Assembly (NCBI GenBank): GCA_043826565.1
Contig: JBDRPX010000004.1
Coordinates: 103,604-167,603 of the forward strand
Length of the DNA stretch: 64,000 bases
From: Candidatus Omnitrophota bacterium
GTDB taxonomy: Bacteria; Omnitrophota; Gorgyraeia; B26-G9
Direction of reading: 5' to 3'
Position numbers and translations under genes: made by a program. Below, one piece after another: positions 1 to 56,942 of this stretch; positions within the stretch are counted from its first letter, which is position 1; every line of letters starts with the position of its first letter. Below the pieces are notes generated by a model. The model ran no database searches and was not told the origin of the DNA. It saw only the letters and a program-made list of their open reading frames with translations.

Positions 1-627
1 TCGCATAGTAATGATCTCTTAAAGTCGAAAGATTATACGGGATTTGCAGTTTTATATTCCGGATATAATATTATCGGTAAGCCCGGAGGGATCTGGGATG
101 AGATATTATGGGAGTATATTAACCTAAAAAGAGAACATCCGGTATGGGCTATTGCCGGGCTGGCTTTTGATTATCAGGGTAATTTAGAGCAAAGGTCCCG
201 GGATTTAAGGAATATGGTATTGCTTTCTGAACAGACTCCGCAAGGAGTATTGGCGGCTTTAGCTAAGGGGAAAAATTACGTTACTCGGGGTGCTCAGTCT
301 GACAATTTTATCCTGAAAGATTTTATGGTTTCCGACTATAAGACTTCCCAATCAAAGCGTATGGGGGAAACTCTTTTTTTAGAAGGTGCTTTACCGCATG
401 TAATAATTAGCGGGGGTTTTACTTCCGGCGGGGCGCAGGAGCTGAATATTTCTTTAGTGAAAAATAAGGAAATAGTGAAAAAATTTGTTGTGCCTGCTCC
501 GTTTACCGTGGAATATGCCGACGGAGATTTTGAAAAAGATGCTTATTACCGTGTGGAAATCAAGGCCAAAGATTTGCATGTGATTACTAACCCGATATTT
601 GTTAAAAAAATGAAAATTGATAATTGA
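1..627 (+). CDS. hypothetical protein, 5'-truncated by the window edge
   Basis: Reading frame 1 is open from nt 1 to the TGA at 625-627. The ORF track only shows the Met-initiated part, 214..627. I recognise no family. Confidence 0.45.
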   Translation, partial: SHSNDLLKSKDYTGFAVLYSGYNIIGKPGGIWDEILWEYINLKREHPVWAIAGLAFDYQGNLEQRSRDLRNMVLLSEQTPQGVLAALAKGKNYVTRGAQSDNFILKDFMVSDYKTSQSKRMGETLFLEGALPHVIISGGFTSGGAQELNISLVKNKEIVKKFVVPAPFTVEYADGDFEKDAYYRVEIKAKDLHVITNPIFVKKMKIDN

Positions 628-678
628 GAATTGAAAGTTGTTTTTTGTTCTTGCCAATATTCAATATTCAACTTTCAG
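608..678 (+). repeat. conserved ~80-bp intergenic inverted-heptamer element, copy A
   Basis: TGAAAATTGATAATTGAGAATTGAAAG...TTGCCAATATTCAATATTCAACTTTCAGGAG lies immediately 5' of the start codon at 688. Confidence 0.7.
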
Positions 679-2394: not shown

Positions 2395-3009
2395 ATGAAT
2401 ATTCTGGCTGTAGGGTGTCATCCGGATGATATTGAATTCGGCTGCGGCGGTACTTTAATAAAGCACGCGGAAAAAAATGATGATATTTATTTGTTAGTTT
2501 TGACAGACGGCGCAGTCGGAGGAGATCCCCAGGTAAGACGTCAGGAACAGTCAGAATCCGCGAAAATGCTGGGGGTAAAAAAGGTTTTTTGGGGAGGGTT
2601 TGAAGATACTAATTTGCCGGGTGACCGGCCTTTAATCTCGGCGATTGAAGAGGTTGTCAAAGAAGTCAACCCGGATATAGTTTTTTGTAATTATTTTCAT
2701 GATGTGCATCAGGATCATCGGGCCGCGGCAAAAGCCTGTTTATCCGCGACTAGATATATCAAAGAAGTATTGTACTATGAAGTCCCGACAACTCAGCATT
2801 TTGAACCGGAGATATTTGTTGATATTGGCAGAGTGCTGGTGAAAAAATGGGATTTGCTTAAAGCTCATGGCTCTCAGGTGGATAGAACCCGGGTGGAGAA
2901 TTTGAGTATCCTGGAAAGCATAAATGCCTGCGCGACATTTCGCGGATACCAGGGCCGGGTTAAATTTGCTGAAGGGTTTAAAGCAGTAAGAATTTTAAGG
3001 GATATATAA
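2395..3009 (+). CDS. PIG-L/LmbE family N-acetylglucosaminyl deacetylase
   Basis: N-terminal AVGCHPDDIEFGCGGT motif is typical of the PIG-L family. GGAGGG RBS lies upstream. Confidence 0.75.
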   Translation: MNILAVGCHPDDIEFGCGGTLIKHAEKNDDIYLLVLTDGAVGGDPQVRRQEQSESAKMLGVKKVFWGGFEDTNLPGDRPLISAIEEVVKEVNPDIVFCNYFHDVHQDHRAAAKACLSATRYIKEVLYYEVPTTQHFEPEIFVDIGRVLVKKWDLLKAHGSQVDRTRVENLSILESINACATFRGYQGRVKFAEGFKAVRILRDI

Positions 3010-4307: not shown

Positions 4308-4392
4308 TTAGTGGAAAAAGGCAAACTCGTGGTAACGCGAGGGCGCAAAGCCGTGCACCCCGAAAATTCGGGGCAGGCAGGTTGCCCGATGA
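4308..4392 (+). ncRNA. candidate c-di-GMP-I (GEMM) riboswitch aptamer
   Basis: The segment GGCAAAC-[CUCGUG GUAA CGCGAG]-GG-CGCAAAGCC-[GUGCACCCCG AAAAUU CGGGGCAGGCAGG]-UUGCCCGAUG matches the GEMM-I layout, including the hallmark GGCAAAC and CGCAAAGCC strings. The first helix is capped by a GNRA tetraloop. The 3' UUGCC pairs with the 5' GGCAA to form P1. Confidence 0.6.
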
Positions 4393-4536: not shown

Positions 4537-5694
4537 ATGCCCAGGTTGCCAAGAGTTTACATTGAAAATTCAGTTTATTATGTAACATGTAAGGGATTGC
4601 AAAACCAGGTAATTTTTAAAGACGCGAGGGACTACGAAATGTACTTTGAATTGTTGAAAAAATACAAAGAACAATACGCAGTCAAACTTTATGCTTATAC
4701 TTTAATGCATAATCATTTGCATTTATTAATGGAAGTTGATAAAGAAGCCAGTATTTCCACAATTATGCACGATTTGACCTCTTCTTACACAAAATATTTT
4801 AATGGCCGCTATGACCGCAAAGGCCATTTATTCCGAGAAAGATTTAAAGCCGCTGTTGTAGAAAAAAATCCGCAAATCCTTTTGGACCTTACCGCATATA
4901 TCCACCTCAATCCCAAGCGATTGAACTTAGGCATACAAGGACGTACGTATCCGTATAGCAGTTATGAGCTTTATCTGGACTATTCCCCAAAGTCCGATAG
5001 AGGGCTGGCTATAAAAAATGAAATTGAAAGTATTGTTAATAAGCTGGTTGGCGAAAATTATGTTGAGTTTATGAACCGCATGCAGGATAACGCGGAGTTC
5101 CAGAAAAATTATAAAAAACTTCAGCGTAAAGGAATGATCGGCTCAGGTGAATTTATGAGCAGAGTTAAAGAAGCTATCGAGCAGCAGCGAAGTGAGCCCG
5201 AGGAACCGGAGTTAGAAGAAAAAATATTACATTCTAAGAATGTTCTTATGAACACGGGAGTGGCGGTATTGCTTTTGAGCATAAGCGCGGGGGGCGTTTA
5301 TTTATATTTTAATTACGCAAATAAGGTATTGGATAAACCCCAGATACCTGTTGCGACAGTTGAGCTGCAGTTGAAAGACCTGAATAATACCGAGTGGCAG
5401 GTGGAAATGTTCAATATGGATGGGTCCCTGGCCCGCGCGGATATTTTAAGTTTTATGCAGGGGAAATTCAGTTCGGCATATCTTTCTCAGTTTGAATTCC
5501 CGCATATTAATTATTCTGTTGTTTTTGAAGGAAATAAAATAATTTGGGAAACAATGCAGACATCGGCAACCGGGACCGCGTCATGGCGCGGTGAAGTGGT
5601 AGACGGCGAGATGCTGGGAATGGTCAGCCTGCGGCAGGAAGGGAAAGAACCGCAGGATTTTTCTTTTAAGAGTCTAAAATACAGGAGGAGATAA
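4537..5694 (+). CDS. HUH Y1-transposase-like (IS200/RayT-like) domain protein fused to a TM helix and an uncharacterised C-terminal domain
   Basis: HNHLHLLME (the HuH motif) and AYIHLNPKR (catalytic Tyr + NP) match the IS200-like/REP-associated tyrosine transposase fold. A TM segment VLMNTGVAVLLLSISAGGVYLYF follows, then ~120 unrecognised residues. ATG 4537 lies 12 nt after AAGGAG; the track's 4525 start is a TTG adjacent to the RBS. Confidence 0.6.
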   Translation: MPRLPRVYIENSVYYVTCKGLQNQVIFKDARDYEMYFELLKKYKEQYAVKLYAYTLMHNHLHLLMEVDKEASISTIMHDLTSSYTKYFNGRYDRKGHLFRERFKAAVVEKNPQILLDLTAYIHLNPKRLNLGIQGRTYPYSSYELYLDYSPKSDRGLAIKNEIESIVNKLVGENYVEFMNRMQDNAEFQKNYKKLQRKGMIGSGEFMSRVKEAIEQQRSEPEEPELEEKILHSKNVLMNTGVAVLLLSISAGGVYLYFNYANKVLDKPQIPVATVELQLKDLNNTEWQVEMFNMDGSLARADILSFMQGKFSSAYLSQFEFPHINYSVVFEGNKIIWETMQTSATGTASWRGEVVDGEMLGMVSLRQEGKEPQDFSFKSLKYRRR

Positions 5695-5695
5695 G

Positions 5696-6133
5696 ATGAA
5701 GGTTGTTAATTTAAATAAGCTTATTACTATCGGAATGATCAGCGTTTTTTTTATCAGCTTTTTGCAGACCGCGGTGTTTGCCGAGAAAAAAGACAGGAAA
5801 AATCCGGAGCCGCTACGCACTAATTCTACTATTAATGAAGTGGTCGGAGAAGTAGCAAGTTTTGATGGAGAAATTATTGTTATTACTTACGGAGACCCTG
5901 CTCAAACCGGGGAATCTTTTGATATGTCGATCAGTATTGAACCGGAAAATTTAGAATTAAACCATATAAAAAGTTTAGATCAAATAAAAAAGTGGAATAC
6001 CGTCAGGATCAGCTATGAAGTAATCACTGAGGAGTATGCCGAAGAAAAAGTTAAAACGCGTAATGTCGCCAGGGCGATAAGCTTTATAAAGGCTGGCAAG
6101 CCGCCGGTTTATGAGCCGGAACAGGATGAATAA
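5696..6133 (+). CDS. small secreted protein of unknown function
   Basis: N-terminal signal peptide (LITIGMISVFFISFLQTAVFA) and an AGGAGG RBS. Its start is 1 nt after the upstream stop, suggesting translational coupling. Confidence 0.55.
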   Translation: MKVVNLNKLITIGMISVFFISFLQTAVFAEKKDRKNPEPLRTNSTINEVVGEVASFDGEIIVITYGDPAQTGESFDMSISIEPENLELNHIKSLDQIKKWNTVRISYEVITEEYAEEKVKTRNVARAISFIKAGKPPVYEPEQDE

Positions 6134-6193: not shown

Positions 6194-9100
6194 ATGAAGA
6201 TGAAAAGATCAATAGTAGTTATGATGTGTATGGTTGTTTTTTTTACAATTCACTTTGCTGGTATTGATGATGCCAAAGCCTTTCAGATTAAAAGGGTGAT
6301 CAGGGGGTCCTATAGCCAGGCAATTGATGAGGAGGTAACAGTTGTTGATCTTACTTCTTTATTGGGCGGGGTGAACCTGGTTCCTGCGAAAACTATTCTT
6401 TTTTATACTATTGATCTTGATGATGAGGATGCCGAAGAGACTTTTACCAATGTAGCTTTAGACAGCCCTTCGGATCTGCTGATCAGCCGGTTTACCTCAG
6501 GTACGGGGCTTACAGTTAATTATGAACTTGTGGAGTTTGTTTCCGGGGTTAAAGTTATGCGCGGTCTTACCACTGTTCCGGAAACAGCAACGATTAAAAC
6601 TGTAACTTTACCTCAATCCATAATTGTTAATAAATCATATGTAACGGTTAATTCTAATGCTGTAAGAGGTTCTAATCTTAATGAAGAATTAAATACGTTT
6701 GCCGCGGAAATAGTTGATGAAACTACGGTCAGGTTCACAAGAACTGTTACTACTTCCCGATTTAATAATACTCTGGCTTATCAGGTTGTTTGTTTTGAAG
6801 GCCTTGATGGTTTAGGCGATGATGTCGTCTCAGTTCAGAAAGGGATAGATATTCTTCCTTCACCTGCCGGCGGGATGAGCCTTACTGTAGGTATAAATAG
6901 TGTTCAAACTGATAAATCTTTATTAATATTTTCAAGCCGGCCGGATACTCTTGCTGACGGTGATGAAGATATAATGTGTGTGGAGGGAATATTAAATGAT
7001 GCCGGCGGCGGAATGAGTGATGCGATACTTTTTAACCGTCAGGAAAATAATAATGATGATGTCACTTTATACTGGTTTGTAATTACTTTTAGTAATGAAA
7101 CTTTTGTTCAGAGTAAAACCCAAACCTTTATTTCTAATAGTAATCCCAACTTTACCATAGACACAGCAATTGTGCCCAGCCGCAGTTTTATTCAAGCATC
7201 TGTTTCGATTACCGGAGGCGGGACATCAGGTAAAGAAGAAACTACTCATGCCTTATATATTACTAATCCTACGACCATAGATACGCAGTGTTCCACAACC
7301 AGTGCTTATACTGTAAAACTTTCCTGGTTTGTAACGGAAATGCCGCCCTTAGAAGTTACTTATCCCAACGGCGAAGAAATTTTTGAAGTCGGAACAACAG
7401 AAAATATTACCTGGAATCATTCAGATGACGTTTTAAATACAGATTCAATGAGTATTGATCTTTCTATCAACAGCGGCAGTACGTATCCTTTAAATGTTAT
7501 AACCGGAGTTGACCCGACTTTAGATACATATGCCTGGAATATTCCCGCGGAAATAAGTTCAACCGGTATTATCGGAAATACCATAAGAGTTAAAATTACA
7601 GATACGACGATCAGCGCAAGAAATTTTGATACCTCAGACGCTGACTTTATAATAAAGGGAAGATTAATTATTGATCAGCCGCCGGACACCTGGCGTTTAG
7701 GCGAGACTCAAAATATAACCTGGGATGTACACGGTAGTTTAAATAGTTTACCTACAAACACTATGACGATTATGCTTTCTACGGATGGGGGCGGAAGCTT
7801 TGCTCATACTGTGAGTGCAGTGGCTGACCCGGGTGCCGGACAGTCTGATGGAAGTGCCGGCTCCGGAAGTTATGGGTGGACTATCCCATCAGATATGGAT
7901 GGTGAAAATTTAATCGGTACGGATAATCAAATAAAACTTATTCTTAATTACGACCCGGATGCGCCGAAGACAACAGTAACCAGTACAAGTTCTAATTTTG
8001 TTTTAAAAGGGCGAATTTTTAATGTTTCCCCGGCTAGTGATGAAACCTGGTTTTTGGGTGAAACAAAAAGTATTACCTGGGATAAAAATGGACACTTCGG
8101 CGCCGGTATTGCCGAGGGAACAGTAGATGTTTATTATTCCAGTAATGGCGGTTTGTCATATGGTACTATTGTTGCTGTAAGCCAACCTGCGGGGACAGAT
8201 GGTTCGGGGGGGAGTTATAATTGGACAATACCCAATAACACTCCTTTAGAAAATCCTGATTCGAAAATTAAAGTTTTTCAAACTACAGATACTTCGGTTT
8301 ATGGAGAAAGTGCTAATTTTTCTTTAATCTCATCACTTTTGCTGGATATTCCCAGCGGTACGGGAATTCTCTGGAAAGTGGGAACGGCTCATGATATTGA
8401 GTGGACAACTGCCGGTTCGGTTAGTATGGTTGACTTGCTCTATGATTCCGGCTCGGGTTATGTTTTAATTACACCTGCCGCGGGTATAGCTAATGCCGAT
8501 GTTTACAACTGGACAATTCCCGACGCTATAAGCAATAGCGTTAAGGTAAAAGTTCAGGATCACGATAATACGAATATATACGATGAGAGTGATAATTTAT
8601 TTTCCATAAAAGGATCAATAAGTGTTACCGAGCCTCATGCAACCGAAATTACACAAGTAAGTATAAATAAAGTTATTCAGTGGAATACTACGGGAAGTGT
8701 AGCCGGAACCGTAAACATTCGTTTGTCACAGAATGGCGGTTCTTCTTATGGGAGTATCATTAATTCAGTTGACGTTTCCAGCGGTTCGTATTCCTGGGCT
8801 CCGGTTGCCGGAGATATGGGTACTAATAATGTGATCAAAGTAGGGCTGCAGGGAGATGAAGACCCGGGAACCGGGACAGCCGGGGAAACAGGAGTTTTTG
8901 CCGTAGAAGCCAGTATTGACCTTACTTATCCGGATGCTTCCGGGTTAACGTATGGTATCGGAGATGAGGTTTATATCAAATGGACATCAAACCCCGCTGC
9001 GTTTGGAAACGTAAATATACGTTACTCAACGGATGGCGGATCTAATTATAATGGATTTATTGCCGACGGTGTTGCCTCAAATAATGTTCCCGGAGGAGAG

Positions 9101-33013: not shown

Positions 33014-33198
33014 GATTTGATGTTAAGCAAGGAGGCGGACCATTGTCAGGATTAAGATGGCAGAGGGCAGATGACAGGAGTCAGTATTCAGAAAGTATAG
33101 TTCAGATATTTGGAAGCAAATGTTTGAAAAATATATTCTGTCTACTGGCTTCTTTTTTTCTGACTTCTGTTTTCTGATTTCTGTCTTCCGTAAAAAAT

Positions 33199-33450: not shown

Positions 33451-33457
33451 AAAACAG

Positions 33458-33545
33458 CGCATAGCGGGCAGCGTTTAGCGGATAGAAAAAGCAAAAAAAT
33501 AATATTAACTATACGCTATCCGCTCTACGCTAAACGCTATAAACG
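33458..33545 (+). repeat. inverted heptamer-array element of the ACGCT type, copy 2
   Basis: Left arm ATAGCGG GCAGCGT TTAGCGG ATAG, then an A-rich spacer. Right arm CTATACG CTATCCG CTCTACG CTAAACG CTATAAA, then CGGAGTG and ATG 33556. Confidence 0.7.
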
Positions 33546-33774: not shown

Positions 33775-33904
33775 ACAGGTCGCAGGTTGCAGGTTTCAAG
33801 ATATACTGTAACAGTCATAGTTTTTGAGACTTGTGACATGAGACTTGAGACATGAAGAGTGACTTTTTGTGTAATTATAGGTATAATAAGGACATAAGTA
33901 TAAA

Positions 33905-33990
33905 AAATGAGAATTGATAATTGAAAATTGTAAAAGCCAGTCAGTGATTTTCCAATATTCAACATTCAATACTCAATTTTCAAACTCGAT
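33905..33990 (+). repeat. conserved ~80-bp intergenic inverted-heptamer element, copy B
   Basis: TGAGAATTGATAATTGAAAATTGTAAAAG...TTTTCCAATATTCAACATTCAATACTCAATTTTCAAACTCG lies immediately 5' of the atpF-like start at 34001. Confidence 0.7.
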
Positions 33991-34000
33991 GAGGTGATAT

Positions 34001-34732
34001 ATGGTAGTAGTAAGTATGATATTATTACAGGTTATTATCTTCGGCGGACTGATATTTCTTTTAAGGCATCTTCTTACCCGTAATGTTACGGATGCGACCT
34101 CACATATGCAGGGAATGATCAAAGGGTACTCGGAAAAAGAGGACCAGATAAAAATTAAACTTGAAGAGGCAGAGAAATATTATGCAGAAAAAATAAAAAA
34201 CGCGGATAAAGAAATTGAAAAATTGAAAGATGAATGCAAGAAGCAGATTGATGAAGAAAAAGTGCAGGTATTGGCCCAGGCGCATAAAGAGAGTGAGACG
34301 GTGATAAACAAGGCCAGGCTTACCTGCGAGGCAATAGAAAATGAATTGGAAAGTAAAATTAATCAGAGAGGAATAGAAAAAGCCGGAGAGCTTATTTGCC
34401 AGGTGCTTTCGCCGGAACTTTGCCAGATAATTCATACGACCTGGGTAGAATCATTAATTGAAAGCGGATTCGCCACAATGGAGTGGCTGAAGGTACCGGA
34501 AGCTGTAAACGTGGCCAAGGTTTCCACGGCATTTGCTTTAACTAAAACACAGAAAGAGACTTTACAGAAAAAACTTGATATCAAATTAGAGAGAGAAATT
34601 AAAATAGAAGAAAAGGTAAGTGAAAAGCTTGTTGCCGGGATGATTATTAATCTGGGCAGCTTGGTTTTAGACGGGAGTTTTGTTTCCAAGATCCGGGAGG
34701 TTGTGCGTGAGTCTACAGCAGATGAAAGTTAA
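34001..34732 (+). CDS. F-type ATPase b-like subunit with a delta(OSCP)-like C-terminal motif (possible b/delta fusion)
   Basis: N-terminal TM helix, then a long Lys/Glu-rich coiled coil. The C-terminus VAGMIINLGSLVLDGSFVSKIREVV resembles the delta-subunit C-terminal motif. GAGGTG RBS lies upstream. Confidence 0.45.
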   Translation: MVVVSMILLQVIIFGGLIFLLRHLLTRNVTDATSHMQGMIKGYSEKEDQIKIKLEEAEKYYAEKIKNADKEIEKLKDECKKQIDEEKVQVLAQAHKESETVINKARLTCEAIENELESKINQRGIEKAGELICQVLSPELCQIIHTTWVESLIESGFATMEWLKVPEAVNVAKVSTAFALTKTQKETLQKKLDIKLEREIKIEEKVSEKLVAGMIINLGSLVLDGSFVSKIREVVRESTADES

Positions 34733-36188: not shown

Positions 36189-36393
36189 TATTATGAGTAA
36201 AAAGATTTTTTAAATTACAATATACAATTTTCAAATTAAAAATAAGTAGAATCTTTAGGATGTTTTATTACACTTTGTGGAATTATTTAAGTGATTTTGA
36301 TTTGTATATTGGAATTTGGTTGTAATTTGAGATTTGTAATTTTTGTTTATTCTTCTTACTTGGGATGTACTGTTATTTAAGGGGCTAATTAGA

Positions 36394-38648: not shown

Positions 38649-38677
38649 TTGACAAAATTATTTATCAATGCAATAAT
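38649..38677 (+). promoter_or_regulatory. possible sigma70 promoter for the gspE-pilZ operon
   Basis: TTGACA at 38649-38654, a 17-nt spacer, then AATAAT at 38672-38677 preceded by TGC (extended -10-like). Confidence 0.3.
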
Positions 38678-38749
38678 AAAAACAAAGTTAAAAATAGTTT
38701 AGTTAACATAATGACGCATAAATTTCTCGAATTTTACAGGTAGAATATT

Positions 38750-42180: not shown

Positions 42181-42244
42181 CGAAGTTACAGGTTACAAGT
42201 GACAGGTGACAAGTTGTAATAAATAAATCAAGAAAAAATCAATA

Positions 42245-43099
42245 ATGCGAATTAAATTGTTCGAATATATTTCTTTTGGAGTGATACTATTTTTATTCAC
42301 ATGTTCTTTGGCAGGAGCGGAAGAATGGGCGGAGGTAAAAGGGGATCATTTTATTGTCTATTTCCAAGGTCCGAATAAAAATTTTGCCAGCCAGGCTGCC
42401 CGAAAAGCTGAGGAATACTACCTGTCTATAGCGCAAGACCTGGGATATGTACGGTATTCCGGTTTTTGGAAATGGGAGAACAGAGTAAGAATTTTTATTT
42501 ATCCGGACCGCGATAAATATTTGGAATCTACCGGCCGGCCGCAGTGGTCCCGCGGTATGGCTGATTATACGAAAAAGCAGATAGTAAGTTATATGTGGAG
42601 CGAGAATTTTTTGGAAGTTCTTTTAGCTCACGAGATCGGTCATTTGATTTTTCGTGACTTTGTCGGTTTTAAAGGAGAAGTTCCTCTTTGGCTTGATGAA
42701 GGCGTCGCGCAATGGGAAGAAAAACAATTTCGGATTCCCCGAAAAATGGCCATGAAAAATATGCTTGAAGAAAACAAAATGTTTTCTTTTTTGGATATGA
42801 TGAAACTTGAAATCAAAAATATCGATGAAGAAGATCCGATATTTATTACCTCATCATTTAACGGGAAGAATGAAGTTAAAATTGTCGAGGGTAAAACACT
42901 TATTGAGATGTACTATTTGCAGTCATTCTCATTAGTGGGATTTCTGATGGAAGAATATCGCGGAGAAAAATTCATCGCTTTTTGCCGGCAGTTAAGAGAC
43001 GGAAAATCTGTGCAGGAGGCTTTGGGGCATACTTACCCTACCGATTTGAGGACATTTGAAGATTTAGAAGAAAAGTGGAGAAAATACATACTAAAATAA
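42245..43099 (+). CDS. secreted peptidase-MA-like (HExxH...EG..Q.E) domain protein
   Basis: Signal peptide ISFGVILFLFTCSLAGA. AHEIGH followed by WLDEGVAQWEE resembles the zinc-binding signature of the Peptidase_MA_2/DUF1570 family. Confidence 0.5.
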   Translation: MRIKLFEYISFGVILFLFTCSLAGAEEWAEVKGDHFIVYFQGPNKNFASQAARKAEEYYLSIAQDLGYVRYSGFWKWENRVRIFIYPDRDKYLESTGRPQWSRGMADYTKKQIVSYMWSENFLEVLLAHEIGHLIFRDFVGFKGEVPLWLDEGVAQWEEKQFRIPRKMAMKNMLEENKMFSFLDMMKLEIKNIDEEDPIFITSSFNGKNEVKIVEGKTLIEMYYLQSFSLVGFLMEEYRGEKFIAFCRQLRDGKSVQEALGHTYPTDLRTFEDLEEKWRKYILK

Positions 43100-43165
43100 A
43101 TCAAAAATCAAAAGTCAAAAGGCAAAATTACAATGCAAAATTCAAAAATAAAAAGATAAATGATA
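43093..43165 (+). repeat. degenerate heptamer array (AANTCAA-like, ~10 units) upstream of gspG
   Basis: The sequence reads AAATCAA AAATCAA AAGTCAA AAGGCAA AATTACA ATGCAAA ATTCAAA AATAAAA AGATAAA TGATAAA. Confidence 0.55.
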
Positions 43166-43184: not shown

Positions 43185-43589
43185 ATGAAGAGAAATAAGG
43201 GATTTACATTAATTGAGTTGATGCTGGTGGTAATAATAATCAGTGCGCTTGCGGCCATGGTTCTGCCGCGCTTAGCGGGCCGTTCAGAACAGGCTCGGAT
43301 AGCGGCGGCCAGTGCCGATGTGCGGGCTAATATCGCTACCGGGTTAAAACTCTTTGAATTGGATAATGGGGGATTTCCGACGACTTCCGAAGGCTTGCAG
43401 GCGCTTTTGACCAAACCTTCATCGGGAATAAACTGGAGCGGGCCTTATCTGGAAAAAGAGCCGGTTGATCCCTGGGGCAGGCTTTATGAGTATAAATCTC
43501 CGGGAGAACACAGACCCCAGGATTATGATTTATATTCTTTGGGAAAAGACGGCGTTGAAAGCGCGGATGATGTTAATAATTGGGAGTAA
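43185..43589 (+). CDS. gspG: T2SS major pseudopilin GspG
   Basis: Prepilin leader MKRNKG|FTLIELM with Glu at +5. The C-terminal signature is DPWGRLYEYKSPGEHRPQDYDLYSLGKDG. GGAGGA RBS lies upstream. Confidence 0.8.
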   Translation: MKRNKGFTLIELMLVVIIISALAAMVLPRLAGRSEQARIAAASADVRANIATGLKLFELDNGGFPTTSEGLQALLTKPSSGINWSGPYLEKEPVDPWGRLYEYKSPGEHRPQDYDLYSLGKDGVESADDVNNWE

Positions 43590-44061
43590 AAACAGAAGTC
43601 AGAGGTCAGAAATCAGAGGTCAGAAGAAAAAAAATCTGTCATCTGTTATCTGTCATCCGACGTCTGGTTTTACCTTAGTCGAGGTGCTGGTTGCGGTGGT
43701 GGTTTTGTCCGTAGGATTAGTCATTATATATGAATCATTCTTAATGTCGCTCGATGTCATAAATTTGTTCTTCAATCGGTTAAATGCGCAGTTTTTCATA
43801 AGTGAAAAAATTGCTCAGGTTCAGCATGGATTCGACCAGCCGGCGGGAACTTTTTTCTCTCCAAATCAAAACGGAATAGTTACTTTAAATAACCGTCTGT
43901 TTAATTGGCAAATAGATATGAATTTGCTTGATGTCCGAGGGGAACTTTATAAGCTTGATACTGTTGTTTCCTGGAAAGAGGGATCTAAAGATAGTGTGAT
44001 CCGCCGGTCTACGCTGGTTAAAAAATATTTTTCTAATTCCTGCCCGGAGAAAAAAAGGTAA
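43567..44061 (+). CDS. minor pseudopilin (GspH/I-like); start uncertain
   Basis: Class III signal G|FTLVEVLVAVVVLSVGLVII. The only in-frame ATGs are at 43567/43570, overlapping the gspG 3' end. That start implies a 34-aa basic leader encoded through a heptamer repeat. The track's start at 43465 would overlap gspG by 125 nt. Confidence 0.45.
   Translation: MMLIIGSKNRSQRSEIRGQKKKNLSSVICHPTSGFTLVEVLVAVVVLSVGLVIIYESFLMSLDVINLFFNRLNAQFFISEKIAQVQHGFDQPAGTFFSPNQNGIVTLNNRLFNWQIDMNLLDVRGELYKLDTVVSWKEGSKDSVIRRSTLVKKYFSNSCPEKKR
43591..43672 (+). repeat. inverted heptamer arrays (CAGARNT x5, an A-run, then TCTGTYA x3-5) at the gspG / minor-pseudopilin junction
   Basis: The sequence reads CAGAAGT CAGAGGT CAGAAAT CAGAGGT CAGAAGA AAAAAAA TCTGTCA TCTGTTA TCTGTCA TCCGACG TCTGGTT. 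Confidence 0.6.
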
Positions 44062-44069
44062 TCGTGTTT

Positions 44070-44690
44070 ATGGGAATAAATAATAAAAAAGGTTTTACTT
44101 TTCTGGAAATGCTCATGTCCGCGGCCATGACCGCGGTTTTAGCCGTGACTTTATATGGAATGCTGGCTAATGGTTTAAAAGTATGGACTGTAGTTAATCG
44201 AGAGTCTCCGCAATTAGATAGAAGTTTATTTTTTGAAAGTATTACGGAAGAATTAAGTAATAGTTTTGAGTTTGCCGGTATCGAATTTACGGGAGATCAA
44301 ATCAGTTTTTCTTTTCCTGCTTTGATGAAGGTTTCGGGAAGAGAAGACGGATTTTATGAAGAAATAGGTTTGGTTAGATATTTTTATGATAAGAATGATA
44401 AAAATATAAACAAACAGCAAGTCAGTTATCAGCAATTACACCAAATGAAGAAGACAGAGTCCCGGGAAAAAATGAAGGAAGTTGAGTCTTTTTCCTTAAG
44501 CTATTATTTTTATGACAAAGAAAAAGATACATTTTTCTGGTCTTCCGTATGGCCTCCGGAGATGCCGGAACCAACTAAAACTATAGGCCTTCCTCAGGCG
44601 GTGCATATAGAGATGTCTTTTAAAGACGGAGTCAAAATTGAGAAGTGCAGCAGGATTATTACGATTCCTTCCGGAGGATTGGTTGGTTGA
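44070..44690 (+). CDS. minor pseudopilin (GspJ-like)
   Basis: Leader MGINNKKG|FTFLEMLMSAAMTAVLAV with Glu at +5. ATG 44070 is preferred over GTG 44064. Confidence 0.55.
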   Translation: MGINNKKGFTFLEMLMSAAMTAVLAVTLYGMLANGLKVWTVVNRESPQLDRSLFFESITEELSNSFEFAGIEFTGDQISFSFPALMKVSGREDGFYEEIGLVRYFYDKNDKNINKQQVSYQQLHQMKKTESREKMKEVESFSLSYYFYDKEKDTFFWSSVWPPEMPEPTKTIGLPQAVHIEMSFKDGVKIEKCSRIITIPSGGLVG

Positions 44691-44770
44691 AATGATGATT
44701 ATTGAGAGTTGATAATTGAAAATTGTAAAAATATTTGATGTTTTTCCAATAGACAACACTCAACGGTCAA
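44688..44770 (+). repeat. conserved ~80-bp intergenic inverted-heptamer element, copy C
   Basis: TGAGAGTTGATAATTGAAAATTGTAAAAAT...TTTTTCCAATAGACAACACTCAACGGTCAATTTTC lies upstream of the gspK-like start at 44810. Confidence 0.65.
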
Positions 44771-44809
44771 TTTTCTTATTAACTATTTTAGGAAAAATTA
44801 TTTAAGCAT

Positions 44810-45910
44810 ATGAAAAGGTTACAGTTTAACGATAATGGTAGCGTACTAATATTAGTGTTATGGATGCTTGGACTTTTAACGGTTTTTGCGGTATACTTAG
44901 GAATTGGTGTCAGGCAAAAGTTAGACTTTCTAAATCGCTTGGAAACGCGGAATAAGCTGAGTTTGATCGCGGAAGCCGGGGTCAAAAAAGCGATTGCCGA
45001 GATCGGGAATATGGATGTCGAACGTTCGGTCATATCACTAGGTGAGCCGATCTTTAATAATGAAGCAGTTTTTTCGCAAAGTAAGATCGCAGAAGGATGG
45101 TTTACCGTAGGATATAATTGTCGTCCGGATGATTTTCATGCTTATGGCAGTGTGGGCGATGAGAAGGAAATGATGTTCGGGGTGCGGGATGCGGCCGGAA
45201 ATATAAATCTCAATTTTGCGAATCGTAATGAACTTATCCGGTTATTACAGTCAGCGGCGGGAGTGGAAGCGTATATGGCTGATCAAATCGCTTCCAGTAT
45301 TGTTGACTGGAGAGATAGAGACAGTATGTCCGCGCCTAATGGGGCAGAGGATAATTATTATCAAGGGTTAAAAGAACCTTATGATTGTAAAGATGATTTA
45401 TTTACAACACAGGAAGAATTGTGTTATGTCCGGGGGATGACCCGGGGAATTTTTGAAAAAATTGAACCGTATATTACGGTTTTTGGTTCCGGGCAGGTGA
45501 ATATTAATACCGCGCCGAAAATAGTGCTTAACAGTTTAGGCTTAAGTAATAGACTGGTGACAAAGATTCTGTTGTTCCGCTGCGGTGAGGATAAGATTCC
45601 GGCAACTGCTGATGACCGTGTTTTTAACAGCTCTTCTTCGGTTATGGCCGAACTAAGTCAGATGTATTCTCTGACTCCGAGCGAAGCGGCAGAACTAAGT
45701 AATTTGGTTTCTCAAGGGAGAATTACGGTAAATTCAGGTGTTTTTTTGATTCAAAGCACAGCTTTTCTTGAACGCAAAAATGGCAAATGTAAAATTGATT
45801 GTGTTCTTGAAAAAAATCTGGTACCGGAAACTATAAGAGCAGGCTGGATTTTAAGTTGGCGCATAAGGTATTTAAATCAAGAGGAAACTTACAAACTGGA
45901 TAATATATGA
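44810..45910 (+). CDS. GspK-like minor pseudopilin
   Basis: N-terminal GSVLILVLWMLGLLTVFA has no Glu at +5, as in GspK. Two NINxN.A helix-hairpin-helix-like segments (NINLNFANRNELIRLLQ, NINTAPKIVLNSLGL). Confidence 0.55.
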   Translation: MKRLQFNDNGSVLILVLWMLGLLTVFAVYLGIGVRQKLDFLNRLETRNKLSLIAEAGVKKAIAEIGNMDVERSVISLGEPIFNNEAVFSQSKIAEGWFTVGYNCRPDDFHAYGSVGDEKEMMFGVRDAAGNINLNFANRNELIRLLQSAAGVEAYMADQIASSIVDWRDRDSMSAPNGAEDNYYQGLKEPYDCKDDLFTTQEELCYVRGMTRGIFEKIEPYITVFGSGQVNINTAPKIVLNSLGLSNRLVTKILLFRCGEDKIPATADDRVFNSSSSVMAELSQMYSLTPSEAAELSNLVSQGRITVNSGVFLIQSTAFLERKNGKCKIDCVLEKNLVPETIRAGWILSWRIRYLNQEETYKLDNI

Positions 45911-50721: not shown

Positions 50722-52380
50722 ATGCTGAATAAACAGAAAATTATCAGCGAGTTTCTAACCGCTAAAGGTATAATTACAATTGACCAATTGCAGCAGGTCA
50801 AACAGCTGCAGGACCGTACTCAAGAAAGCATTAAAAGTGTTTTTAAAAAACTTAATATTTTTTGTGATAATCAGTTGGGCAATCTAATCATCGAAGAATT
50901 AGGTCTTTCCTTTATCGACCCTTTCACATTTACTTTTAAGCCGGCAATGCTGGAACTTACAGAATCTTTTTTTGCTAACCGTTTTCGGGTTATGCCGCTT
51001 GATATCCAAGGGGATGAGTTGACGATAGCGCTGGATAATCCTCTTAATTTTATTTTACTGGAATATTTCTCTAAAGTTTTAGGCTGTAAAATTAATGGTG
51101 AAATGATCCGGGTAGAAGCTATGGACGAACTGCTGAAAAAGTATTACCCCATAGCTTCGGAAGATATGGTTGCGCCTTCTCCGGAAGAGACCACAGATAG
51201 CGAGGGACATATAGCGGATGATGCTCCCGTAGTCCAGCTGGTAAGCATGCTGATTTCTGACGCGTATAGAAGAAGAGCCAGTGATATTCATATAGAGCCG
51301 TTACAGGAAACATTACGTATTCGTTACCGTATTGACGGGGTATTGCAGCAGGTCCAATCCCCGGTAAAGAAATTACAGGCTTCTGTAGCCAGCCGGATTA
51401 AATTAATGGCGGGAATGAATATCGCCGAGAAACGATTGCCTCAAGATGGAAGGATCCGTACGATTGTTGATAATCGGGAATTTGATTTAAGAGTTTCCAC
51501 TCTTCCGTCGCATTATGGGGAAAGTGTAGTTCTGCGTATTTTAGATAAAAGAGTTATGAATGTTGAAGAATTAGGGTTTTCCGATTTACAGCAGGAGGTT
51601 TTTAAAAATATTGCTAATTTCCCCAATGGAATCATTCTGGTTACCGGCCCGACCGGAAGCGGTAAAAGCACTACTCTTTATGCGGTGCTAAGTAGTATTA
51701 ATCGGGCGCAAAGAAAGATTCTAACGGTAGAAGATCCGGTAGAATATCAGATCTCCGGTATTAATCAGGTACAGGTAAAACCTACAATCGGACTTTCTTT
51801 TGCGATGGTCTTGCGGTCTATGCTTCGGCAGGCTCCGGACATTATAATGGTCGGTGAAATCAGAGATTTAGAAACCGCAAGTATTTCCGTGCAGTCGGCT
51901 TTGACCGGACATTTGATCTTTAGTACATTGCACACAAACGATGCCTCCAGTGCGATAACCAGGCTTGTGGATATGGGGATTAAACCATATCTTGCGGCAG
52001 CAACATTGCGGGCGGTTTTGGCCCAGCGGCTTATCCGTCTTTTATGCCCGCATTGTAAAGAAGCTTATAATCCTCCGAAAGATGAGGTGAAAATTTTAGA
52101 GATTGATTTGACGGATAAAGATGTGGTTTTATACCGGGCGAAAGGATGCAGCCAATGTTCTCATTCCGGTTATCTGGGACGCACGGGAATTTTTGAACTA
52201 TTGGTATTTGATGATGATATTCGGCAATTAACACATAAGCGTTTTCCGAGTACGAAAATTAGAGAAAGAGCCCGTTCGCGGGGTATGATCACCTTGAAAG
52301 AACATGCGACCGAAAAAGTCCTGAGCGGATTGACCAGTTTTCAGGAATTAGTGAGAGTTACGCAAAGTGATGTGGACTAG
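50722..52380 (+). CDS. pilB: type IV pilus assembly ATPase PilB
   Basis: N-terminal GSPII_E N-domain; VTGPTGSGKSTT; tetracysteine CPHCKEAY...GCSQCSHSGY. Confidence 0.85.
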   Translation: MLNKQKIISEFLTAKGIITIDQLQQVKQLQDRTQESIKSVFKKLNIFCDNQLGNLIIEELGLSFIDPFTFTFKPAMLELTESFFANRFRVMPLDIQGDELTIALDNPLNFILLEYFSKVLGCKINGEMIRVEAMDELLKKYYPIASEDMVAPSPEETTDSEGHIADDAPVVQLVSMLISDAYRRRASDIHIEPLQETLRIRYRIDGVLQQVQSPVKKLQASVASRIKLMAGMNIAEKRLPQDGRIRTIVDNREFDLRVSTLPSHYGESVVLRILDKRVMNVEELGFSDLQQEVFKNIANFPNGIILVTGPTGSGKSTTLYAVLSSINRAQRKILTVEDPVEYQISGINQVQVKPTIGLSFAMVLRSMLRQAPDIIMVGEIRDLETASISVQSALTGHLIFSTLHTNDASSAITRLVDMGIKPYLAAATLRAVLAQRLIRLLCPHCKEAYNPPKDEVKILEIDLTDKDVVLYRAKGCSQCSHSGYLGRTGIFELLVFDDDIRQLTHKRFPSTKIRERARSRGMITLKEHATEKVLSGLTSFQELVRVTQSDVD

Positions 52381-52557
52381 AAAATAAGGCTCAGAGCCTT
52401 ATTTTGAAATCACAATAAACAAATAACAGATTCCAAACAAATGACAATAACCAAAATTCAAATGACAAAAAATAGATTATAATATGCTTGGTGATTGATT
52501 TTTAAATATTGGAATTTGGAAATTGTAATTTGGAATTTAAAAAAATGGGGGTAGAAT

Positions 52558-55332: not shown

Positions 55333-55697
55333 AAATAAGTCAAAACTTAAAAGAGTAATACAAAACAAAAAAGTATTTTTTAATAATTTAGAAATATTGT
55401 ACTTTAATAAAGTGATATTTGTATATTTTGTTAACTATATATTTTCTCATAACGGCACAATTTTCCCGTACCGGGCGCGAAAAATCAGCTAAAAATCACC
55501 TCCCGGACTGACGGGCTCGGCAATTTTCTTAACGCTAATTTTTTGCTAAAATTGTGAGTTGTTCAAAACCATATAGATTAACAACTCGGTTAACACATCT
55601 TTGTTATATTACAGTAATATTTTTTAATTTTGATTTGTCATTTTGACTTTTGCTTTTTGAATTTTGAATTAGTTAATAATAGGATATTTATAAAATT

Positions 55698-56942
55698 ATG
55701 TCATTATTCGATTATACGGCAATTAATAAAGAAGGCAAAGAAGTTACCGGAGAGCTCGAAGCTGTTTCTGTTTCCGAGGTTGTGGGGGTTTTACGTTCAA
55801 AACATCTTTTTTCCGTTGAAGTTGTTCCCGCGGGTACAGCAAATAAAAAGAAGAGGTTGTTGTCCGGATTTATCAGTAGGTTAAAATTGTTTTCTAAATC
55901 GCGCCGGATAAAACCGCAGGATCTTGTTATTTTCACCCGGCAGCTTGCCGTATTGATTGATGCCGGATTACCTTTAGTGCAGGCATTGTATACTTTGCAG
56001 CGGCAGGCACGTTTTCAGGAGATGAGTGAACTTATTGCTGAGTTGATTGACGCTATTGAATCAGGAAGAACTTTAAGTGACGCATTATCGATTTATCCGG
56101 AATCCTTTTCAAAAGTGTATATAAATATTGTAAAAGCCGGAGAGACCGGAGGTGCTTTGGATGTTGTATTGAAGCGTTTAGCTGATTATCTGGAAAGGAA
56201 TCTGCGGTTGCAGCAGCGTATTCATTCCGCTCTGATCTATCCGGCACTGGTATTGGTTATCGCCGTAATAATTTTAACGATTATTATTACTTTTGTTATT
56301 CCCAGCTTTATGGCTTTATTCGAAGATACGGGAATCCCATTGCCTTTATTAACGCAGGCAATCTTAAATATTACAACGTTTTTGCGGATGCGCTGGTATT
56401 TGTTTGCCGGGTTTTTGGTAATAGTTGTTTTTGGATATAATATATTATTGCAGAATCTTAAGTTTAAGTATTTAAAAGATAAAGTTAAACTTAATTTACC
56501 TGTTTTCGGAGCGCTGACAAGTAAAATAATTGCGGCCCGTTTTTCACGGACTCTGGCAACACTGATGAGCGGAGGTGTGCATATCTTACGTGCTTTAGAG
56601 CTAACCAAAGAAGTTAGCGGAAATTTAGTTATGGAAAAGGAAATTGATACGGTCTATGACAGTGTCCGGGAAGGCGGTTTTATTGCCAAGGTTCTGGAGA
56701 ACAGCGGAGTTTTTCCTCAGCTTATGGTTGATATGATTTCTGTGGGAGAAGAAAGCGGATCTCTGGATAAAATGCTTTCTAAAGTTGCGGATACTTTTGA
56801 GGAGGAGGTTGAAATTACGGCCAGTAGTTTAACTTCATTGCTTGAACCGGCGCTTATTGTGATCATGGGTGGTATTGTCGGCCTTATAGTTCTGGCCATG
56901 TTCTTACCTCTTATAAGTTTAATAAAATCGTTAACCATATGA
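55698..56942 (+). CDS. pilC: PilC/GspF-family platform protein
   Basis: Two T2SSF repeats (AGLPLVQAL..., LEPALIVIMGGIVGLIVLAMF). Confidence 0.8.
   Translation: MSLFDYTAINKEGKEVTGELEAVSVSEVVGVLRSKHLFSVEVVPAGTANKKKRLLSGFISRLKLFSKSRRIKPQDLVIFTRQLAVLIDAGLPLVQALYTLQRQARFQEMSELIAELIDAIESGRTLSDALSIYPESFSKVYINIVKAGETGGALDVVLKRLADYLERNLRLQQRIHSALIYPALVLVIAVIILTIIITFVIPSFMALFEDTGIPLPLLTQAILNITTFLRMRWYLFAGFLVIVVFGYNILLQNLKFKYLKDKVKLNLPVFGALTSKIIAARFSRTLATLMSGGVHILRALELTKEVSGNLVMEKEIDTVYDSVREGGFIAKVLENSGVFPQLMVDMISVGEESGSLDKMLSKVADTFEEEVEITASSLTSLLEPALIVIMGGIVGLIVLAMFLPLISLIKSLTI

Follow-up and report, generated by a model that had tools for sequence, protein, structure and literature searches.

Mazel et al. 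reportedly described the STRR repeats of cyanobacteria as heptanucleotide repeats in 1990. To our knowledge, no function has been established for any of the heptamer repeats noted since then, and what makes or maintains them is unexplained. Here we analyse such repeats in the window, a stretch of 64,000 nucleotides from a Candidatus Omnitrophota bacterium (GenBank assembly GCA_043826565.1, contig JBDRPX010000004.1, positions 103,604 to 167,603 of the forward strand), in which a sequence-only reading had noticed a palindromic heptamer element in three copies, called A, B, and C in the following. All positions are those of the window unless a related locus is named. Heptamers are the over-represented size among the long simple sequence repeats (LSSR) of many bacteria, as the work of Mrazek (2007) is summarised in PMC4679880 and PMC4692102, and the cause proposed there is slippage of the polymerase over a contact of about 7 nt. 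In Xanthomonas, about 185 arrays of GGGAATC have been found, and 70-75 pairs among them consist of neighbouring arrays on opposite strands (Rehm et al. 2015, PMC4692102). These arrays are located mainly in co-directional spacers and to 7-8% in divergent ones, are transcribed, and are not conserved between species (PMC4692102). Arrays of TAACTGA are known from marine Beggiatoaceae, cyanobacteria, and Bacteroidetes, where they are placed just upstream of start codons and show strain indels in 7-nt steps (MacGregor 2015, PMC4679880). A literature search found no report of such repeats for Omnitrophota.

With a probability of about 0.6, we regard A, B, and C as diverged copies of one family of paired heptamer arrays that would be built by slippage, transcribed, and would act as generic intercistronic stem-loops with a role like that of the REP (repetitive extragenic palindromic) elements. 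On inspection of the sequence all three copies are present as they had been noted (A at 611-677, B at 33908-33986, C at 44702-44773), and their description as an inverted pair of heptamer arrays is right. In each, (TTGAnAA)x3-4 is followed, after a loop of about 10-20 nt, by (TCAAnnT)x3-5 in inverted orientation. The arms are as follows:

611-640, + strand: left arm of copy A, TGAAAA TTGATAA TTGAGAA TTGAAAG TTG
654-677, + strand: right arm of copy A, CCAATAT TCAATAT TCAACTT TCA
33908-33935, + strand: left arm of copy B, TGAGAA TTGATAA TTGAAAA TTGTAAA A
33948-33986, + strand: right arm of copy B, TTTT CCAATAT TCAACAT TCAATAC TCAATTT TCAAACT
44702-44731, + strand: left arm of copy C, TTGAGAG TTGATAA TTGAAAA TTGTAAA AA
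44741-44773, + strand: right arm of copy C, TTTTT CCAATAG ACAACAC TCAACGG TCAATTT

The consensus proposed for the three copies is indeed non-random. TTGATAATTGA[GA]AATTG and CCAATA are invariant, and the 17-mer TTGATAATTGARAATTG is far beyond chance, with 12 matches in the window at up to three mismatches against 1.55 expected, a number that 0 of 100 shuffles reached. Period-7 chains of at least three TTGA or TCAA are found three times and twice in the window, respectively, compared to about 0.02 and 0 in shuffles. The TTGA family has three copies in 64 kb at about 70% identity (mean column identity of 70% in a MAFFT alignment), and both the loops and the unit numbers differ. B and C have 27 of 28 nt of the left arm in common, in addition to the junction TTTTCCAATA. 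As their variable letters follow in the same order, B and C are homologous copies, which goes beyond the use of a common unit. A scan of metagenome DNA (241 million records) with the A/B/C consensus yielded 17 (AATTGAN)n arrays, all generic, and no true homologue, and a metagenome scan for relatives of the ATP synthase b/delta protein encoded next to B found none. Short-read (Logan) contigs of this sample, which match the window at 100% identity, start and end inside A (655) and B (about 33949). This suggests branching of the assembly graph and hence more copies elsewhere in the genome or the community.

All genes of the window are on the + strand, and all array contexts within it are co-directional. 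A is flanked by the gene of a 137-aa hypothetical protein (open reading frame (ORF) 214-627) on its upstream side and by a gene of the WbqC family downstream, B precedes the gene of an ATP synthase b/delta fusion, and C lies between two pseudopilin genes of the type II secretion system (T2SS), a T2SS-J-like and a T2SS-K-like one. The genes downstream of A, B, and C (WbqC, ATP synthase b/delta, T2SS-K) are functionally unrelated. The short gap to the next ATG holds for A (10 nt, ATG at 688) and B (14 nt, ATG at 34001), and the gap contains a Shine-Dalgarno (SD) sequence in both cases (GGAG at 678-681 and GAGGTG at 33991-33996, respectively). From C to its ATG at 44810 there are 36 nt. A and C had also been said to begin with the stop codon of the upstream gene, which needs a small correction in both cases. 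In A, ORF 214-627 ends in frame at the TGA within the third heptad (625-627) and not at the first TGA of the element, and the stop at 44688-44690 lies 12 nt before the conserved core of C. Three consecutive TTGAnAA units put a TGA in all three frames, one of which ends ORF 214-627, and the left arm of each copy can be read as a mini-ORF of six codons (start, K/R, I/V, D, N, stop). Both features are probably incidental. A leader peptide of this kind (M-K/R-I/V-D-N-stop) was rejected because the mini-ORF has no SD, is the end of the upstream gene in A, and leaves the downstream SD unsequestered, and a function as an all-frame stop is not general, given that only about 10 of 18 arrays contain stop triplets.

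While the A/B/C family itself stands, the sequence-only reading missed that period-7 arrays are widespread here and are built from a wide range of units, of which this family is one special case. A lag scan of the window revealed 19 arrays (635 nt) at lag 7, about 18 of which are intergenic, with spacers making up about 5% of the window. Lags 6 and 8-12 gave none or one array each, and lags 4 and 5 gave 11 and 8 shorter arrays (190 and 177 nt), mainly in coding sequence. No other short period in the window is strong, and the period-7 arrays account for roughly a fifth of the internal intergenic DNA. The best autocorrelation is at lag 7 or 14 in 11-12 of the 20 internal spacers, and the pooled intergenic autocorrelation has peaks at lags 7, 14, and 21, with no such peak in coding sequence. 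In the other spacers, Tandem Repeats Finder reported the period-7 units TTTTGAT, ATAGCGT, CTAAACG, TTCTGTC, CTATACG, CAGGTTG, TTGAGAC, AAGTGAC, AAATCAA, CAGAAGT, ATCTGTC, TTGGAAT, and TTTTGAA. Some unit families are reused within the window, namely TTGA three times and TAGCG and CAGA twice each. Besides A, B, and C there are at least seven inverted heptamer-array hairpins with other units, often with an A-rich loop. A typical element takes up the spacer between the stop of the upstream gene and the next SD, and its position is always downstream of a gene end. Arrays of various units take up most of the co-directional spacers in this genome and in its relatives. The hairpins, with their folding z-scores, and the direct arrays are:

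2287-2379, + strand: TAGCGnn / nnACGCT hairpin, copy 1, reaching up to the SD of gene 2395-3009; z -5.0
33455-33541, + strand: TAGCGnn / nnACGCT hairpin, copy 2, between the ATP synthase epsilon and c genes; z -4.1
33040-33192, + strand: large GnCAGAn / TTCTGnC hairpin between the giant gene described below and atpC; z -6.7
33775-33856, + strand: (GGTYGCA)x3 / (TTGAGAC)x4-5 with many G-U pairs, directly after the c-subunit gene; z -3.9
43589-43664, + strand: CAGARGT / ATCTGTC hairpin separating two pseudopilin genes and free of stops in the frame of the prepilin that follows; z -2.5
52425-52539, + strand: inverted arrays of opposite polarity, CAAnnnn / TTGGAAT, between two T2SS-E-like ATPase genes; z -3.1
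36216-36342, + strand: looser inverted CAA... / ...TTG period-7 arrays between the ATP synthase alpha and gamma genes; z -1.4
1402-1453, + strand: direct (TTTTGAT)x7 inside a CAGGTT/AACCTG stem, between the WbqC and AAA-ATPase genes
42182-42215, + strand: direct (AAGTGAC/AGGTTAC) array directly after the stop of the T2SS-F gene
43092-43154, + strand: direct (AAATCAA)x8 array directly after the stop of gene 42245-43099
55621-55671, + strand: direct (TTTTGAA/TTTTGAC)x7 array upstream of the T2SS-F gene at 55698

The two TAGCG copies have the sequence of the loop, the junction, and the 3' end in common. In the spacer of the opposite-polarity arrays, the heptamer hairpin is preceded by a classical terminator-like hairpin, AAAATAAGGCTCAGAGCCTTATTTT, at 52381-52405 after gene 50722-52380. 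In the pseudopilin spacer (43567-43690), the hairpin leaves the G|FTLVE prepilin motif without a canonical start codon in front of it, and an ORF from the ATGATG at 43567 runs through the hairpin (MMLIIGSKNRSQRSEIRGQKKKNLSSVICHPTS|GFTLVE). The same is found in the related locus L120 (18643-18790) with an unrelated hairpin. Judged from the reading frame, the hairpin of this spacer may be translated as an unusually long, Lys-rich prepilin leader.

What happens to the elements over longer times can be seen from the orthologous spacers of relatives. Six related genomes were compared, of which five provide seven loci with a conserved gene order (WbqC, AAA, PIG-L, GT4, Y1_Tnp, a small ORF, the giant gene, atpC, atpE, b/delta, alpha, gamma, beta, and T2SS E-K). 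The sixth, L143, is a complete 1.8-Mb genome that is arranged differently and has several N-masked intergenic stretches, and is outside the spacer comparison. The ATP synthase alpha subunit of the window is 64-79% identical to proteins of Omnitrophota metagenome-assembled genomes. Four of the loci (L120, L121, L141, and L144) have heptamer arrays in the same spacers, nearly all intergenic and mostly paired, and the units are unrelated to those of the window. L120 contains ATAGTGA/TTCACCA, AAAGACA/GGTCTTT, GGAATWT, and CGAGATA, and L121, L141, and L144 contain TAGGG/CCCTA in at least six spacers. L122 has few arrays, a TAGCG array among them, and no heptamer arrays were found in the locus of L142, whose spacer between the giant gene and atpC carries three tandem repeats of about 115 nt (8071-8506). 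Directly upstream of the conserved b/delta SD GAGGTGAT there is a hairpin of the TTGA type in the window and of the TAGGG type in L121 and L141. The spacer of C, between the J and K genes, is reduced to 9 nt in L120 and to 26 nt in L121, where it is a heptamer array of three units. The spacer of A does not exist in L144 and L145 because the genes overlap. A duplication of a 35-nt block (5x7) distinguishes L141 from L121. Thus, at orthologous sites the units turn over completely while the hairpin architecture is retained, and each genome has a few dominant families that it reuses.

Promoter-like motifs in the same spacers, whose equivalents were examined in L120, L121, L122, L141, and L142, serve as internal controls. 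The motif GGTATAATAA (33880-33889) before b/delta is kept, and so is TTGACAAA...ATCAATGYRATAATAAA (38649-38680) upstream of the T2SS-E/PilZ gene. Because these promoter motifs survive at this divergence, functional spacer sequence is kept in these loci, whereas the heptamer elements keep their architecture only. The first motif belongs to the following site:

33859-33887, + strand: promoter-like site GTGACT-17-TATAAT directly upstream of B; its -10 region GGTATAATAA is kept in L120 and L142

B is directly downstream of this conserved promoter and would therefore be a 5'-terminal hairpin, probably at the 5' end of the b/delta-alpha-gamma-beta transcript.

Arrays of this kind are not restricted to Omnitrophota. 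Scanning 185,579 species genomes with TTGANAATTGANAATTG-N12-32-CAATANNCAA revealed at least 118 loci, compared to fewer than about 10 expected from composition by a rough estimate. Among the matches listed, most are from Bacteroidota, and Planctomycetota, Cyanobacteria, Desulfobacterota, Chloroflexota, and others are also represented. About 40% of the matches listed have at least three inverted right-arm units, some being perfect heptad palindromes, and others are direct arrays running up to a start codon. The spacer contexts among the matches listed are 40 co-directional, 17 convergent, and 3 divergent. Divergent spacers would be expected at 24% by length, according to an ORF-based control at the same loci (depletion p = 1e-4). 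This depletion places the (AATTGAN)n elements downstream of gene ends and not in promoter regions.

The assignment of A, B, and C to the intergenic heptanucleotide repeats of the LSSR/STRR type, as paired inverted arrays, is well supported. The arrays contain at least three head-to-tail 7-nt units beyond chance, are noncoding, form complementary pairs on opposite strands, are rare between divergent genes, and their sequence is not conserved at orthologous sites. The LSSR (Mrazek, via PMC4679880 and PMC4692102) and STRR are also intergenic with a unit of 7, comprise several families per genome, and are suggested to arise by slippage. However, these descriptions stress direct and often long arrays, while the arrays found here have 3-8 units and are mostly inverted pairs in operon spacers. 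The GGGAATC repeats of Xanthomonas and the GGGGAYT repeats of Nostoc (PMC4692102) are similar in having 7-nt units, typically about four per array, in intergenic and mostly co-directional positions, in forming opposite-strand pairs with stem-loop potential, and in not being conserved at the same genes in relatives. The TAGGG/CCCTA family of L121, L141, and L144 is rich in G-tracts like these repeats. In contrast, TTGAnAA is A/T-rich and cannot form a G-quadruplex, several unrelated families are present per genome, and the host belongs to the Omnitrophota. The TAACTGA repeats (PMC4679880) have 2-6 units within a few nucleotides of start codons and are scattered across phyla, both as here, and their forward unit carries stop codons so that only a brief overlap with a gene end is possible, as in copy A. 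They are almost all direct (one indirect set in 170) and predicted to be unstructured, whereas the elements here are hairpins. REP/BIME and REPIN-RAYT systems (Bertels & Rainey 2011, PMC3116915) share with the window short extragenic imperfect palindromes, inverted doublets able to fold into hairpins in ssDNA or mRNA, species-specific families, a location downstream of genes, and a Y1 transposase-like gene in the genome. The elements described here differ from them in the internal 7-nt modularity, the variable unit number, the low identity of the copies, and a Y1 gene that is not flanked by them.

The predicted folds consist of helices of 4-6 bp separated by internal loops of 1x1 to 3x3, with pairing by the 4-5 constant positions of a heptad and not by its 2-3 variable ones. 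The loops are mostly A-rich on the sense strand, that of A being T-rich, and the downstream SD is not sequestered in the A/B/C fold. The consensus hairpin of A, B, and C has 21 pairs, and 93.7% of the cells pair. Of the covariation that had been proposed as a check, compensatory changes were indeed found in three pairs, but 23-37 of 500 shuffles reach that, which is weak with three sequences. The argument at the level of the class is stronger, because complementarity of the arms holds whatever the unit, as seen in at least 10 elements whose units are unrelated. The hairpins also have a polarity. The purine-rich arm is at the 5' side in 19 of 23 hairpins from the window, L120, L121, L122, L141, and L144 (p = 0.003, with elements that are not fully independent). 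An inverted repeat reads alike on both strands, and the polarity is thus intrinsic to the element. It corresponds to the arrangement reported as convergent for Xanthomonas.

In the explanation that we favour, replication slippage in a 7-nt register would lengthen and shorten the arrays, a bias that has been proposed by Mrazek et al. (2007), and families would be spread or homogenised between spacers by recombination or a transposition step. The elements would be transcribed within operon mRNAs and, if acting at all, serve as generic intercistronic or 5'-terminal stem-loops for mRNA decay, processing, or translational insulation like REP hairpins. Neither ligand sensing nor a sequence-specific operator role would be involved. 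Several observations weigh against this explanation. The same unit family with similar loop and junction recurs in several spacers, for which local slippage alone falls short, and the 5' bias of the purine arm is not accounted for by slippage either. Looking up the exact proteins for other strains returned only contigs from the same sample that are identical to the window and show no 7-nt indels, and P0001 and P0002, at 77% identity, are too distant for a comparison of indels at the strain level. A comparison of sense and antisense RNA folding of 19 hairpins gave nine that fold better in sense, nine that fold better in antisense, and one that is equal, and A and B have antisense z-scores of -4.4 and -4.25 against -1.0 and -1.2 in sense, so that selection for mRNA structure is unsupported. 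Without a bias for the sense strand, the hairpin potential is a symmetry at the DNA level and not demonstrably an adaptation of the mRNA. Finally, the RNA role of the elements, that is both their transcription and an effect at the RNA level, is something we infer.

The main rival is a mobile element of the REPIN or MITE (miniature inverted-repeat transposable element) type, in which the hairpin families would be non-autonomous elements copied between spacers, possibly by the Y1 protein (annotated as RayT) encoded at 4537-5694. Families are genome-specific with several copies per 20-60 kb, and junction and loop are shared between B and C and between the two TAGCG copies. The elements resemble REPs in that they occur outside genes, can form hairpins, and are under-represented in divergent spacers. 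The window also encodes a Y1_Tnp protein whose homologues are labelled RayT by JGI, and the contig breaks inside A and B hint at further copies. It is harder to reconcile with such copying that the Y1_Tnp gene is kept in conserved synteny and that its flanking spacers in the window, L144, and L145 contain no heptamer arrays, as would be expected of a REP/RAYT system. In addition, the copies are only about 70% identical with differing loops and unit numbers, no target-site duplication was seen on inspection of the A/B/C flanks, and the scan of 241 million metagenome records turned up no homologous copies. Terminal inverted repeats are inherent to a hairpin, and the short J-K spacers of L120 and L121 could be empty sites, but that of L121 is itself a heptamer array. 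We therefore consider this origin doubtful. Of the three readings that had been offered for A, B, and C, REP/BIME-like elements nevertheless come nearest, since the elements are extragenic, form hairpins, belong to dispersed families, and avoid divergent spacers, while a Y1 gene free of flanking arrays and the low identity of the copies speak against a REP/RAYT system.

The strict spacing of the arrays could also reflect a protein with a 7-nt footprint (a ribbon-helix-helix protein on DNA, or a cold-shock-domain, S1, or CsrA-type protein on RNA) that binds the arrays and tunes the adjacent genes. The ribbon-helix-helix repressor omega of pSM19035 binds contiguous 7-bp heptad operators, direct and inverted, in promoter regions, which the arrays would resemble on DNA, and CspB has a heptanucleotide footprint. 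The units show 4-5 constant core and 2-3 variable positions, the elements end right at the SD, and the same idea has been put forward for the TAACTGA repeats (PMC4679880). Against this, six or more unrelated cores (TTGA, TAGCG, CAGA, TGAC, GGTTGCA, and TTGGAAT) are found within a single genome. The elements are also intercistronic and not promoter-proximal, being depleted where promoters and operators are located. The earlier suggestion of a regulator-binding site does not agree with the unrelated functions of the downstream genes or with orthologous spacers that hold other cores or nothing, and we regard binding of this kind as improbable. A sigma-70 promoter or an intrinsic terminator has even less in its favour. 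TTGAnA resembles a -35 box with GAnAAT 17 bp further on, B and C contain TTGGAA-16/17-TACAAT in antisense, and promoter-like hits were obtained at 44687-44716 (+), 33955-33927 (-), and 44749-44722 (-). The counts are near those of shuffles for the regions of A (9 vs 7.2±2.6) and B (7 vs 4.0±1.8), and only that of C is higher (5 vs 1.5±1.4). The antisense boxes are absent from A, the other unit families cannot be promoters, and divergent spacers are depleted of the elements. In antisense, A and B are a hairpin followed by a T-run (a run of A6-7 precedes both) with z of about -4.3. However, the terminator search called no site at A, B, or C, and AT-rich, bulged stems of 60-80 nt are unlike intrinsic terminators, which have a short G+C-rich stem and a U-tract. 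Thus, both functions are very improbable. The third earlier suggestion, a structured cis-regulatory leader RNA or riboswitch common to three operons, is largely refuted and hardly credible. The consensus hairpin with its three compensatory pairs, and A and B abutting the ribosome-binding site, would fit such a leader. Around A, B, and C there is no Rfam family at gathering or permissive thresholds, the only hits being chance-level ones to miRNA precursors (E 0.6-1). The loop differs between the copies, covariation hardly exceeds that of shuffles, the SD is free, the downstream genes are unrelated, and relatives have other units or none at all in the orthologous spacers.

It is also conceivable, if rather unlikely, that the heptamer hairpins are a selected and actively dispersed class of intercistronic elements found across phyla, which would be made or recognised by dedicated machinery. 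This tentative class would be defined by pairing cores of 4-5 nt, a period of 7 nt, and the purine arm first, and might comprise the elements of Omnitrophota, Bacteroidota, Planctomycetota, Cyanobacteria, and Xanthomonas. Such machinery could be a protein that binds nucleic acids with a 7-nt footprint, or a recombination system specific for hairpins, both being speculative.

The Y1_Tnp gene is part of a region with features of its own. A riboswitch of the c-di-GMP-I-GGC type (cyclic di-GMP; RF03167, 60.1 bits) is found at 4311-4390 ahead of this gene, followed by the 385-aa Y1_Tnp itself, an ORF of 145 aa (5696-6133), and a giant gene of 8939 aa (6194-33013). The same synteny around the riboswitch region is present in two relatives, one of which (L145, 5780-5859) has a c-di-GMP-I riboswitch (RF01051) and a terminator there. 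Cyclic di-GMP may thus control the operon of the giant protein, as far as the arrangement of these features tells. The Y1_Tnp protein is kept at full length across Omnitrophota at 40-73% identity and looks like the product of a domesticated gene. The giant ORF contains dozens of 285-nt (95-aa) repeats with 60-100% identity, and orthologous giant genes (more than 3,000 to 7,685 aa) are located at the same place in five syntenic relatives, adjoining genes of the ATP synthase and T2SS- or type IV pilus-like genes. Giant genes have been reported in Omnitrophota, with which the giant ORF of the window agrees.

The window is a clean case of heptamer repeats from an uncultured phylum with small genomes, in which conserved operons (ATP synthase, type II/IV secretion) allow spacers to be compared between relatives. 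The turnover of the units with the hairpin kept, the few dominant families per genome, and the polarity bias are constraints on models based on slippage, mobile elements, or protein binding. For annotation, a few similar copies are no ground for calling such elements riboswitches, operators, or novel noncoding RNAs. Dedicated machinery, if it were to exist, would answer the 35-year-old STRR/LSSR puzzle mechanistically.

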